A stretch of 64,000 nt of DNA from a virus. The stretch lies in the IMG/VR virus record IMGVR_UViG_3300045988_122518; one strand, given 5' to 3'. Of this stretch, positions 6,298-7,399 are shown piece after piece. Each line of letters opens with the position of its first letter. Within the stretch, counting starts at the first letter, position 1. Below the pieces are notes generated by a model, which worked only from the letters and a program-made list of their open reading frames with translations, did no database searches and was not told the origin of the DNA. The translations under genes and the position numbers were made by a program.

Positions 6298-6460
6298 CCG
6301 GGTGTAGTTCAGTTGATAGAACGCCTGATTTGGCAAGATGACAGAATGGTAATGTCTGAGGGTCGCTCCCGAGGTCAGTTAATAGCTGTTATGAGTTCGA
6401 ATCTCATTGTTGCCACTAGGGTTCAGGAGGCCGAGCGTTTGAGTCGCTCCACTCGGACCA
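6298..6460 (+). tRNA. tRNA-Pro (UGG)-like gene interrupted by an ~87-nt insertion in the anticodon loop
   Basis: 5' part CCGGGTG-TA-GTTC-AGTTGATA-GAAC-G-CCTGA-TTTGG; 3' part (G)T-TCAGG-AGGCC-GAGCG-TTTGAGT-CGCTC-CACTCGG-A-CCA; acceptor is 7 bp (one G-U) and anticodon stem CCTGA/TCAGG is perfect; spliced loop TTTGGGT would match tRNA-Pro(UGG). Confidence 0.45.
6332..6415 (+). ncRNA. tRNA-like element nested inside the tRNA-Pro insertion
   Basis: Canonical T arm ATGAG-TTCGAAT-CTCAT; acceptor-like GGCAAGA/TGTTGCC with one mismatch; long hairpin CTGA-GGG-TCGCT-CCC-GAGG-TCAG; no standard anticodon arm. Confidence 0.35.
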
Positions 6461-6461
6461 T

Positions 6462-6590
6462 TTAGACACATACAGCAATTCTTTCATTAGAAAGGTATAC
6501 GGGTTCAAATCCTGTAAACTCCAACTGGGGTTTTGGCGAAATTGGTTAACGCACATAACTTGAAATTATGTTTTCTAACGTGTCTAGTTT
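6462..6590 (+). ncRNA. Y-RNA/YrlA-like ncRNA with permuted tRNA-like domain
   Basis: 5' TAGACAC + ACAGCAATTCTTTC motif; T arm ACGGG-TTCAAAT-CCTGT; acceptor 3' AAACTCC then 5' GGGGTTT; D arm GCG-AAATTGGTTAA-CGC; intact anticodon-like arm CATAA-CTTGAAA-TTATG; 3' GTGTCTA pairs with 5' TAGACAC. Confidence 0.5.
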
Positions 6591-6665
6591 GAAATAACTT
6601 TTTTGATTTTTTATAAAAAATATAATATAATATATATAGAAAGTTAAGAAAGGAATTGATAAAAA

Positions 6666-6860
6666 ATGAAAAAGACTTCTGTTGATTTTGGTTGCTATTA
6701 TAATTCCATTGATAATAAGGAGCTTGTAAAAGCAATTGCCCGCGCTTCTAATCCCAATGCGGAAGATATTATTTTGTATTGTAAGATTGATGATGGCGGT
6801 CTTGCTTCTGCTCCTATGTATATGTTTGAAAAGGATTTTGTAGCAACTTTTATTAATTGA
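6666..6860 (+). CDS. hypothetical protein
   Basis: ORF behind a conserved promoter/UTR cassette with AAGGA ribosome-binding site. Confidence 0.35.
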   Translation: MKKTSVDFGCYYNSIDNKELVKAIARASNPNAEDIILYCKIDDGGLASAPMYMFEKDFVATFIN

Positions 6861-6879
6861 GTTGCTTATACGGGATTAG

Positions 6880-6945
6880 CGCAGCTGGTAGCGCATCTGA
6901 CTTACATTCAGGAGGCCGTGGGTTCGAGTCCCTCATCCCGTACCA
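6880..6945 (+). tRNA. tRNA-Val (anticodon UAC)
   Basis: Acceptor ACGGGAT/ATCCCGT (perfect), D arm GCGC-AGCTGGTA-GCGC, anticodon loop CTTACAT, T arm GTGGG-TTCGAGT-CCCTC, CCA encoded. Confidence 0.75.
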
Positions 6946-7200
6946 TCGAACGCAGGATTGGTTCGATTCCAATAATCAGCTGTAATTAGTGTAATGGTTG
7001 AGCACAGTGTTCGTGTTTTAAATATATCAAAGACACCACAAACTGCGAATTTTCTTTTCTATAATAGAAGATAACAGAGATATTGTTTTACCAATAACTT
7101 TTGATTACCTGTCGAAGGTGTAGTCTGTTTGGGGTAAGAGAGAATTAATCGACAAATAGATGAAATAAATTGATTGAAATTCTTTGGTGTCTTGTTTTAT

Positions 7201-7399
7201 ACGGTCGTCGCCAAATTGGTAAGGCACAGGACTTTCTCAAAATCAGTTAAATGGGTTATATAATATGACGGGGTTAAGTAGTATTATATAAGTTCTGTTA
7301 GTAGGCTTCCGGTCCTATAAAACCGAGAATGTTGGTGCAAGTCCAACTTTTGAGCCCTGACTCCTGCATCTGCTGGTTCGAGTCCAGCCGGCCGTGCCA
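7201..7399 (+). tRNA. tRNA-Glu (UUC)-like gene interrupted by a 123-nt insertion after anticodon position 36
   Basis: 5' part ACGGTCG-TC-GCC-AAATTGGTAA-GGC-A-CAGGA-CTTTC; 3' part AC-TCCTG-CATCT-GCTGG-TTCGAGT-CCAGC-CGGCCGT-G-CCA; acceptor 7 bp (one G-U); anticodon stem CAGGA/TCCTG perfect; spliced loop CTTTCAC equals the E. coli tRNA-Glu loop; insertion 7237-7359 ends in G. Confidence 0.5.

Follow-up and report, generated by a model that had tools for sequence, protein, structure and literature searches.

Four tRNA genes are interrupted in the anticodon loop in a 64,000-nt stretch of phage DNA, IMG/VR virus record IMGVR_UViG_3300045988_122518 (the whole of this stretch is referred to below as the window). 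The inserts in three of these genes fall into two kinds, tRNA-shaped in tRNA-Pro and tRNA-Gln and endonuclease-only in tRNA-Gly. The split genes are genuine and the anatomy of the inserts is firmly established; register, polymorphism, covariation and the wide occurrence of both insert classes were also established directly. The favoured explanation, given a probability of about 0.5, is that neither kind contains a ribozyme, that the tRNA-shaped inserts are excised in the style of RNase P processing and the exons ligated, and that the endonuclease-only inserts are excised by a protein nuclease. It is put forward more tentatively, at somewhat short of even odds, that together they represent a previously unrecognised type of phage intron (a tRNA or minihelix nested within a tRNA, excised by end maturation and followed by phage ligation) and a set of ribozyme-less introns composed of an endonuclease gene and a helix that mimics the DNA target.

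Interrupted tRNA genes in the window

Default ARAGORN overlooks the split tRNA genes. When introns are permitted, four are reported in the window:

6298-6460, + strand: tRNA-Pro(UGG) with an 87-nt insert (ARAGORN -i)
7201-7399, + strand: tRNA-Gln(UUG) with a 123-nt insert (ARAGORN with introns)
23525-23961, + strand: tRNA-Leu(UAA) with a 349-nt insert (ARAGORN with introns)
24727-25256, + strand: tRNA-Gly(UCC) with a 455-nt insert (ARAGORN with introns)

The remaining intron-containing calls in the window are chimeras of adjacent tRNAs, and 20 dinucleotide shuffles of the window (1.28 Mb) yielded no ARAGORN tRNA calls. The initial annotation had described three split tRNAs (Gly, Glu and Pro) within 6298-7399, with inserts of 455, 123 and 87 nt at a common position, 36/37. 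The genes and lengths hold, with the third tRNA being Gln and not Glu, and tRNA-Leu(UAA) had been overlooked; Pro and Gln lie within those coordinates and Gly lies outside them. The stems flanking the inserts are intact, as had been stated, and the two short inserts, at 87 and 123 nt, are indeed too short for a group I catalytic core. The common position does not survive: the Gly insert is at 36/37, the Gln insert at 35/36 (or 34/35) and the Pro insert is ambiguous from 34/35 to 36/37. A single shared insertion position was also rejected for the wider set of inserts described below, in which 34/35 is the unambiguous site of a 68-nt insert in tRNA-Lys (Lys-68), 35/36 that of four inserts and 36/37 that of the endonuclease class.

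The window has a G+C content of 33.5% and belongs to a large phage with many tRNA genes. It encodes a suppressor tRNA(CUA), and a subset of its long open reading frames (ORFs) has in-frame TAG codons. IMG/VR and human-gut metagenomes contain related contigs of 160-198 kb; this size, together with the abundance of mobile elements, fits the Zeta group among the crAss-like phages (Yutin et al. 2021, PMC7886860), a ribozyme- and intron-rich phage lineage (PMC7886860). When deposited phage genomes were searched with 6200-7500, with the tRNA-Leu insert and with ten concatenated nested precursors, the searches returned tRNA-Val similarity or nothing.

The tRNA-Pro insert

The interrupted tRNA-Pro gene has three parts:

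6298-6331, + strand: 5' exon of tRNA-Pro(UGG), ending ...CCTGATTT (ARAGORN -i; alignment to seven uninterrupted alleles)
6332-6418, + strand: 87-nt tRNA-shaped insert, GGCAAGA...TGTTGCC + A + CTA (Rfam tRNA; alignment gap)
6419-6460, + strand: 3' exon of tRNA-Pro(UGG), with CCA encoded (ARAGORN; relatives; spliced product)

The joined exons are called as tRNA-Pro. Among nine related loci, seven have an uninterrupted tRNA-Pro and one has the identical 87-nt insert. The alignment gap against the uninterrupted gene is exactly GGCAAGA...TTGCC-A-CTA, with the ambiguity in register owing to a run of G. The tRNA-like mini-structure initially seen at 6332-6415 is confirmed by Rfam, in which this segment scores 35.1 bits against RF00005 (gathering score 29). 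Its minihelix, with 6 of 7 acceptor pairs, an adjoining 5-bp T stem and a 7-nt loop, was equalled by 4 of 20000 shuffles.

The insert exists in two variants, with the tails ACTA and ACTG (the latter in L109/L121), which occupy two tRNA-Pro backgrounds that are distinct in the D loop and T stem, and each of these backgrounds is known uninterrupted as well. The anticodon stem CCTGA/TCAGG is common to both interrupted alleles and was not seen in uninterrupted ones. Drawn from four sequences, this looks like co-conversion, in which the insert would have moved together with a few flanking bases. Presence or absence of the insert varies among near-identical genomes. The alternative initially offered, that the inserts are mobile mini-elements, is supported by this polymorphism, by the two backgrounds and by the polymorphic Gly, Lys and Leu inserts. 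The trait that unifies the small inserts is not a 36/37 target, as had been supposed, but a complete tRNA-like unit.

The tRNA-Gln insert

The gene first read as tRNA-Glu is divided as follows:

7201-7235, + strand: 5' exon of tRNA-Gln(UUG), ending ...GGACTTT (match to Phass-1 tRNA-Gln; stem covariation)
7236-7358, + strand: 123-nt tRNA-shaped insert, CTCAAAA...TTTTGAG + C + CCT (fold; minihelix test)
7359-7399, + strand: 3' exon of tRNA-Gln(UUG), with CCA encoded (spliced product; Phass-1 match; covariation)

Two readings of the junction each remove 123 nt: CTTTC/AC (the slash marking the junction), which gives tRNA-Glu at 36/37, and CTTT/GAC, which gives tRNA-Gln at 35/36, equivalent to 34/35 because of a repeated T. 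Every annotated match to the joined exons in deposited phage genomes is a tRNA-Gln. The best match, the uninterrupted tRNA-Gln of phage Phass-1 (91.7% over 72 nt), spans the junction in one piece and has the loop CTTTGAC. The phage's own tRNA-Glu(UUC) and tRNA-Glu(CUC), which are uninterrupted in relatives, align poorly with the joined exons of 7201-7399. The match to tRNA-Gln genes thus rules out the original tRNA-Glu(UUC) with its 36/37 junction, and places the insert at 7236-7358, at 35/36 rather than 36/37. No second tRNA-Gln was detected in the tRNA regions examined of the window and its relatives.

The 123-nt insert is present in all 24 related contigs (nine IMG/VR relatives and 15 metagenome contigs). 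It folds as a four-way junction, and its minihelix (7 of 7 acceptor pairs, an adjoining 5-bp T stem and a 7-nt loop) was equalled by none of 20000 shuffles, with no match to the Rfam tRNA model. Its tail is C + CCT in the window and C + CCA in the L007/L119 lineage, and one compensatory and three G-U changes are found within it. In L007/L119, both partners have changed in seven pairs of the outer tRNA-Gln: three acceptor-stem pairs, two T-stem pairs and one pair each in the D and anticodon stems. None of these pairs is lost, and 99.8% of cells are paired, a result that 0 of 500 shuffles equalled. Covariation of the acceptor stem in relatives, which had been proposed as a check on the tRNA at 7201-7399, was therefore observed, in three compensatory acceptor pairs. 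RNA-level removal of the insert from tRNA-Gln is probable.

A tRNA-shape rule for small inserts

The small inserts start at +1 of a 7-bp acceptor stem, have an adjoining T arm, and end in N + CCA or a variant. A further nested example comes from relatives of the window, and the others were chance finds in the short flanks of unrelated phage loci:

Relatives of the window: tRNA-Lys(UUU), 68 nt, CTT/GATGAAA...TTTCATC-N-CCA/TTAA, unambiguously at 34/35 (Rfam tRNA, 53.2 bits)
L030: tRNA-Ile(UAU), 72 nt
L051: tRNA-Glu(UUC), 74 nt (Rfam tRNA, 48.2 bits)
L067, 2572-2693: amber suppressor tRNA(CUA), 45 nt, an acceptor and T-arm minihelix only
L084: tRNA-Gln(UUG), 71 nt
L084: tRNA-Lys(UUU), 63 nt
L095/L098, 2441-2593: tRNA-Arg(UCU), 76 nt, a canonical tRNA-Phe(GAA) (Rfam, 72.4 bits in L095)
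L134: tRNA-Leu(UAA), 50 nt

The minihelix was tested at fixed end coordinates, with 6-7 of 7 acceptor pairs, an adjoining T stem of 5 of 5 pairs and a 4-nt tail. Ten independent inserts, including those from unrelated phage contigs, conform to it, each being equalled by 0-4 of 20000 shuffles, and all nine products spliced by the rule (9/9) are called as standard tRNAs. Nothing is constant beyond the acceptor/T-arm minihelix and its 4-nt tail, with D and anticodon arms that are variable or missing. In sequence, the ten inserts share only generic tRNA features, the smallest being the 45-nt minihelix. Membership in RF00005 (at least 29 bits) extends to the Pro, Lys-68, L051, L084 (39.5 bits) and L095 inserts. 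The Gln-123, L030 and L067 inserts do not reach this gathering score, and keep the acceptor/T-arm minihelix alone.

U is the last base of the 5' exon in all ten cases, and the tail is CCA in six of the ten inserts and a variant in the others. Judged from sequence, all ten would present the minimal geometry of an RNase P substrate, with a 12-bp coaxial acceptor/T stem, a 7-nt T loop and a single-stranded 3' NCCA. In exact-pattern scans, the Lys-68 and Gln-123 inserts were found in the same phage lineage only. At six loci, a nested tRNA and a tRNA interrupted by an endonuclease occur together within 3.4 kb.

The endonuclease-only class

The interrupted tRNA-Gly gene contains the following features:

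24727-24762, + strand: 5' exon of tRNA-Gly(UCC), ending ...CTTCC at base 36 (identical to uninterrupted tRNA-Gly in 12 relatives)
24763-25217, + strand: 455-nt insert at 36/37 (unique junction)
24791-25204, + strand: 137-aa ORF for a PD-(D/E)XK homing endonuclease of the I-Ssp6803I family (PF11645; phrog_5018)
25218-25256, + strand: 3' exon of tRNA-Gly(UCC) (ARAGORN; relatives)

In all 12 relatives that cover the region, tRNA-Gly is uninterrupted and identical to the two exons in the window, which fixes both the Gly(UCC) reading and the unique 36/37 junction. The ORF belongs to PF11645, with a score of 87.7 bits (cutoff 26.1; E=9e-25). I-Ssp6803I itself is a tetrameric enzyme with a pseudo-palindromic 23-bp target (PMC3384342). 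The endonuclease ORF occupies 414 of the 455 nt of the insert, which leaves no space for a ribozyme, and endonuclease inserts in general are about 90% ORF. Similar ORF-only inserts were found in the tRNA-Lys, tRNA-Asn and tRNA-Thr genes of relatives. A profile built from five such ORFs retrieved 80 viral loci, and at 67 of these ARAGORN calls a tRNA on the + strand with a 400-560-nt intron, a few of the calls being spurious. A further 16 loci were found in a genome collection; 11 of these are alike, several on large contigs of metagenome-assembled genomes, about 100-180 kb in length.

The 3' end of the Gly insert (GGAAGG-T) pairs with bases 35-36 and with the insert's own 5' end. This arrangement recurs in a comparison of 61 unique junctions (including a few spurious calls), in which the anticodon stem was fixed from ARAGORN. 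The result is a continuous helix, in which base 33 pairs with base 37, base 34 with the last base of the insert, and bases 35 and 36 with the preceding two; the first six bases of the insert then pair further upstream. Each rung, from 33-37 to the sixth insert base (i6), is paired in 41-56 of the 61 junctions, with three pair types at rung 33-37 and five or six from rung 34 to i6. Slid controls are mostly paired in 12-41 junctions, reaching 47 at most, at rung 33-37. About 50 distinct junctions have this helix geometry in common, with covariation, and the 3' end of the insert covaries with anticodon bases 34-36 (CC/GG, GT/AC, TT/AA, CG/CG and others). This covariation argues for an RNA-level role of the insert end at the splice sites. 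RNase III was considered as the nuclease for this class and is unlikely, given that the inferred stagger is 3 nt and not 2 nt.

The class also occurs in a cultured phage. In Enterococcus phage EFP01 (NC_047796.1), a tRNA-Asn(GUU) that the record does not annotate lies at 105242-105777 (1432-1967 of locus L139), with a 463-nt insert carrying a PD-(D/E)XK ORF at 105353-105730. In about 29 related Schiekviruses the same tRNA-Asn is uninterrupted and annotated; phiSHEF16 is one of the relatives without the intron. EFP01 also encodes RtcB at 140218-141462 (L141, 15218-16462; PF01139, E=3e-59).

Comparison with known intron classes

Membership of the Pro, Gln and Gly inserts in group I was rejected on the basis of their ends and the lack of a ribozyme core. 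The group I end rule (U at the end of the exon, G at the end of the intron) is broken in tRNA-Gly, in which the exon ends in C36 and the insert in T. It is also broken in the small inserts, with the Pro insert ending in A and the Gln insert in T (A in L007). Inserts of the endonuclease class mostly end in A, C or T. The conserved P3-P9 core of group I takes up about 200 nt or more, and the Rfam Intron_gpI model gave no match at E<=10 in 4000-9500 or 21800-26500. An archaeal-type bulge-helix-bulge, in which a 4-bp helix lies between two opposed 3-nt bulges that are each cut, was likewise rejected, and inspection of the junction sequences revealed none at any junction. In the small inserts, an asymmetric internal loop of 3-4 / 7-8 nt separates the anticodon stem from the acceptor stem of the insert, and in the endonuclease class the helix is continuous.

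The fourth insert differs in its ends:

23560-23908, + strand: 349-nt insert of tRNA-Leu(UAA), without an ORF, at 34/35, the classical group I site

Its ends are group I-like, with a U before the insert and a terminal G, and it has neither an Rfam match nor a blastn relative. In relatives of the window, tRNA-Leu(UAA) is uninterrupted at six loci and has inserts of 736-896 nt at five. A RAGATH-33 RNA is located 14 nt past tRNA-Leu(UAA), at 23975-24103 on the + strand (Rfam, 123 bits, above the gathering score).

Proposed excision pathway and alternatives

An enzyme-dependent pathway, which the initial annotation had raised as one hypothesis, is the best remaining explanation, given that group I and bulge-helix-bulge splicing both fail and that the tRNA-Gln cloverleaf has been kept. 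The healing-and-sealing chemistry attached to that hypothesis is disfavoured for the small inserts. Because these form complete units from +1 to a CCA-type end, they point instead to RNase P and 3'-end processing, which would leave ends that require a ligase only. RNase P would cut at the 5' end of the insert, leaving exon 1 with a 3'-hydroxyl, and an RNase Z/BN-like activity of the kind that makes CCA-type 3' ends would cut past the 4-base tail, so that exon 2 would start with a 5'-phosphate. With the two tRNA halves kept together by the outer cloverleaf, the DRB0094-like ATP-dependent ligase of the phage would seal the 3'-hydroxyl/5'-phosphate nick in this anticodon loop. A U at -1 is favoured by bacterial RNase P, and the acceptor/T-arm minihelix is the minimal substrate of both RNase P and the CCA-end enzymes. 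In the endonuclease class, the 3' end of the insert would zip bases 33-36 and the insert's own 5' end into a helix that prolongs the anticodon stem, as in tRNA-Gly, and a putative protein nuclease would cut at two sites staggered by 3 nt, after which the exons would be religated.

The RNA ligase, polynucleotide kinase-like protein and several phosphoesterases that had been named in support of this hypothesis are all present in the window, as profile matches, along with related proteins:

38835-40211, + strand: ATP-dependent RNA ligase with an N-terminal OB domain, DRB0094-like (PF09414 and PF21189; phrog_968, E=1.5e-65)
45101-45625, + strand: P-loop polynucleotide-kinase-like protein (PF13671; phrog_505; bacterial Pnkp kinase region)
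45610-46170, + strand: metallophosphoesterase (profile matches)
43621-44340 and 37527-38120: two further metallophosphoesterases
34527-34847, + strand: cyclic-phosphate-processing REC domain protein (PF20274)

A nucleotidyltransferase is also encoded. The ligase matches TIGR02306 in its N-terminal part only (44.5 bits, E=9e-12), below the equivalog cutoff of 151, and by this measure is a relative of the DRB0094 family rather than an equivalog. This ligase family is 140-fold enriched in gut phages with tRNA-linked theta ribozymes, and its role was left unestablished in that study (Kienbeck et al. 2024, PMC10879173).

Several observations weigh against the proposed pathway. The ligase, kinase and phosphoesterases are located about 30 kb from the tRNAs and adjoin a Ro60-like gene (see below). 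The enzyme set also fits a Ro60/Y RNA/RNA-repair module and the clean-up of ribozyme-cut tRNA ends, and is therefore not specific evidence for splicing. The 3' cut of the small inserts is the weakest step: in substrates that lack CCA, RNase Z typically cleaves just behind the discriminator, so that exon 2 would carry three surplus bases, and the tails include the variants CTA, CTG, CCT, TCT and CCC in place of CCA. Two loci may be exceptions to the tRNA-shape rule, L128 with a 2-nt tail and L045 with an insert at 32/33 and a poor acceptor stem. The compensatory changes in tRNA-Gln all derive from the single divergent lineage L007/L119, and EFP01, which has an insert of the endonuclease class, has RtcB instead of a ligase of the type found in the window.

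Healing and sealing throughout is an unlikely alternative. It holds that a metal-independent endoribonuclease of phage or host origin acts at both junctions and leaves a 2',3'-cyclic phosphate and a 5'-hydroxyl, which the kinase and a phosphoesterase heal before the ligase seals the break, or which RtcB joins directly. The window does encode a kinase, three metallophosphoesterases, the cyclic-phosphate REC protein, a nucleotidyltransferase and a ligase, and the phage with an endonuclease-only tRNA-Asn insert, EFP01, encodes RtcB; for the endonuclease-ORF class, in which this alternative is at its strongest, healing and sealing or RtcB joining is plausible. However, the healing enzymes are equally well explained by RNA repair or by the clean-up of cyclic phosphates left by an HDV-like (hepatitis delta virus-like) ribozyme. 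No bulge-helix-bulge was seen on inspection of the junctions, no EndA/Sen-type protein was found among the ORFs covered by a non-exhaustive scan, and the exact tRNA mimicry of the small inserts and the U at -1 are left unexplained.

It is also improbable that the inserts are never removed, in which case they would be selfish elements that inactivate dispensable phage tRNAs, and nothing but the endonuclease mRNA or the tRNA-like unit inside would be used. Presence and absence among near-identical genomes is what recent insertions would show, phage tRNAs are accessory genes, and the canonical inner tRNA-Phe could be a sole functional product; in addition, the Pro and Gly exons are too close to their uninterrupted alleles to reveal selection. 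The Gln insert is harder to accommodate, since it is fixed in 24 contigs with seven compensatory and no disruptive changes in the outer tRNA, and no tRNA-Gln other than this interrupted gene was detected in the tRNA regions examined. Without exact excision, the coincidence of 10 of 10 insert boundaries with mature tRNA ends would have no explanation, and the covariation of the endonuclease insert 3' end with bases 34-36 would have no obvious use in an unprocessed RNA.

A very unlikely variant for the endonuclease class is excision by the insert's own PD-(D/E)XK protein, with the RNA helix copying the left half of the DNA target and the same 3-nt stagger. I-Ssp6803I cuts palindromic anticodon-stem DNA with a 3-nt 3' overhang, and the inferred sites in the RNA (after base 36, and between the partner of base 34 and base 37) match this pattern, being staggered by 3 nt and giving a 3' overhang; tRNA-splicing endonucleases also share the fold superfamily. 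The argument is purely one of geometry, and A-form RNA is unlike B-form DNA. The I-Ssp6803I family is not known to cleave RNA, which also counts against this variant. That the RNA helix mimics the DNA target of the enzyme is speculation.

The least probable alternative, and a distant one, is that the small inserts or the endonuclease-class helix are a new self-splicing or self-cleaving RNA: the lineage is ribozyme- and intron-rich, with an HDV-like candidate in the window, the 5' exons of the small inserts end in U as for group I introns and the Leu(UAA) insert has group I-like ends, but the ten small inserts share only generic tRNA features, down to a 45-nt minihelix, and terminate in A, T or G with no conserved G, Rfam shows no ribozyme in the inserts, and the endonuclease inserts are nearly all coding.

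The Ro60-like protein and Y RNA-like elements

Among the genes near the ligase and repair enzymes, 28283-29812 (+ strand) encodes a 509-aa protein with DUF2828 and DUF7788 (phrog_850, 'RNA-binding protein'). Its AlphaFold model has a mean pLDDT of 72.5, and the top nine Foldseek matches in the PDB are all Ro60/Rsr proteins, including Ro60 of Thermus phage phiLo, with modest TM-scores of 0.33-0.49. By this structural model, the product is Ro60-like. Other genes of an RNA-damage or repair type, namely a weak Macro match, a NADAR protein and a PIN-PhoH (PhoH2-like) protein, are found among 40678-41277, 42086-42529 and 51772-53034 (+ strand).

A covarying stem, AAAGAC(N)...(N)GTCTTG, closes at least eight elements on the + strand, and in most of them AYACAGCAA is found just inside the 5' strand:

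3886-3935, + strand: AAAGAC/GTCTTG element
5020-5143, + strand: AAAGAC/GTCTTG element
6465-6595, + strand: AAAGAC/GTCTTG element
7030-7198, + strand: AAAGAC/GTCTTG element
23150-23285, + strand: AAAGAC/GTCTTG element
23350-23420, + strand: AAAGAC/GTCTTG element
25305-25450, + strand: AAAGAC/GTCTTG element
25562-25635, + strand: AAAGAC/GTCTTG element

Seven of the eight are upstream of a tRNA gene, several of them directly 5', and 23150-23285 precedes another such element. Three contain a tRNA-like module (5052-5118, 6495-6570 and 23165-23260) in which a loop of 4-6 nt caps the acceptor stem. Such a hairpin-closed arrangement is the topology of YrlA, a bacterial Y RNA (Rfam YrlA, 22.8 bits, E=0.2), and relatives show covariation in both the T and D stems of the module at 5052-5118. 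The ACAGCAA motif is also found beside tRNAs in the unrelated phage loci L035, L038 and L099. These elements are candidate phage Y RNAs. The three modules were also considered as circularly permuted tRNA genes, and this was rejected, as the flanking helices lack splice-site geometry and a Y RNA-like identity fits better with their topology and with the Ro60-like gene.

An HDV-like (theta-type) ribozyme candidate is located at 7753-7807 (+ strand), directly 3' of the suppressor tRNA(CUA) at 7663-7752. It matches the Rfam model HDV-F-prausnitzii weakly (26.1 bits, E=0.09), with P1 and P2 pairings seen by eye. The suppressor tRNA has no encoded CCA, contrary to the other tRNAs of the window. Between the 5020-5143 element and tRNA-Ile(GAU) there is a truncated tRNA 5' fragment (AGTTCGGTAGCTCAGCTGG...) at 5146-5185 (+ strand), followed by an HNH-type ORF at 5238-5840 that contains six TAG codons in frame. 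Some relatives have another tRNA-Ile(GAU) allele that begins at this point.

Relation to known systems

The introns of archaea and eukaryotes that are removed at a bulge-helix-bulge by EndA/Sen, with joining by RtcB or Trl1, resemble the phage inserts in being short, ribozyme-less interruptions of the anticodon loop for which removal by proteins is presumed, and a ligase, kinase and phosphoesterase are encoded by the phage. They differ in that the phage inserts lack a bulge-helix-bulge and are found at 34/35, 35/36 and 36/37 and not at 37/38, in a bacteriophage, and in that the small inserts imply 5'-phosphate and 3'-hydroxyl ends rather than a cyclic phosphate and 5'-hydroxyl. Bacterial group I introns of tRNA-Leu(UAA), and of tRNA-fMet with I-Ssp6803I, likewise target the anticodon loop and show presence/absence mobility, and the Gly insert encodes a homologue (PF11645) of the enzyme of the tRNA-fMet intron. 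In contrast to these, the Pro, Gln and Gly inserts have no ribozyme core or terminal G, the Gly exon does not end in U, and the small inserts are 45-123 nt in length.

Embedded tRNA-shaped modules also mark the sites of cleavage by tRNA end-processing enzymes in MALAT1 mascRNA and in mitochondrial tRNA punctuation. The flanks are not rejoined in those systems, whereas here they are tRNA halves that need ligation. In T4 Pnk/Rnl1 repair, and with ligases of the DRB0094 type (DraRnl), there is, as proposed here, a phage ATP-dependent ligase and a 3'-hydroxyl/5'-phosphate nick in an anticodon loop; the T4 break is damage inflicted by the host (PrrC), whereas here it would be a programmed step in maturation. 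Finally, the split and permuted tRNA genes of Nanoarchaeum and Cyanidioschyzon also have separated halves that are joined after transcription. Those rely on a bulge-helix-bulge, whereas the phage genes keep the normal order of halves and have a spacer that is itself tRNA-like.

Implications

A literature search found no description of nested tRNA-shaped inserts or of endonuclease-only tRNA introns in phages. Standard tRNA finders overlook or misname split genes, as illustrated by the tRNA-Gln called Glu here and by the unannotated tRNA-Asn of EFP01, and EFP01 provides a cultured, ready system in which the endonuclease class can be tested directly. If the proposed pathway is correct, bacteria and their phages would have a first case of protein-dependent tRNA splicing, built from ordinary tRNA-processing enzymes and a ligase. 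The series of inserts, with a canonical nested tRNA at one end and a 45-nt minihelix at the other, would then show a possible origin of an intron from a tRNA. The pathway would also give phage RNA ligases a concrete function, explaining the enrichment of the DRB0094 type in recoded gut phages, and the phage ligase could gate the supply of given tRNAs, including tRNA-Gln, tRNA-Pro and, in L067, an amber suppressor.

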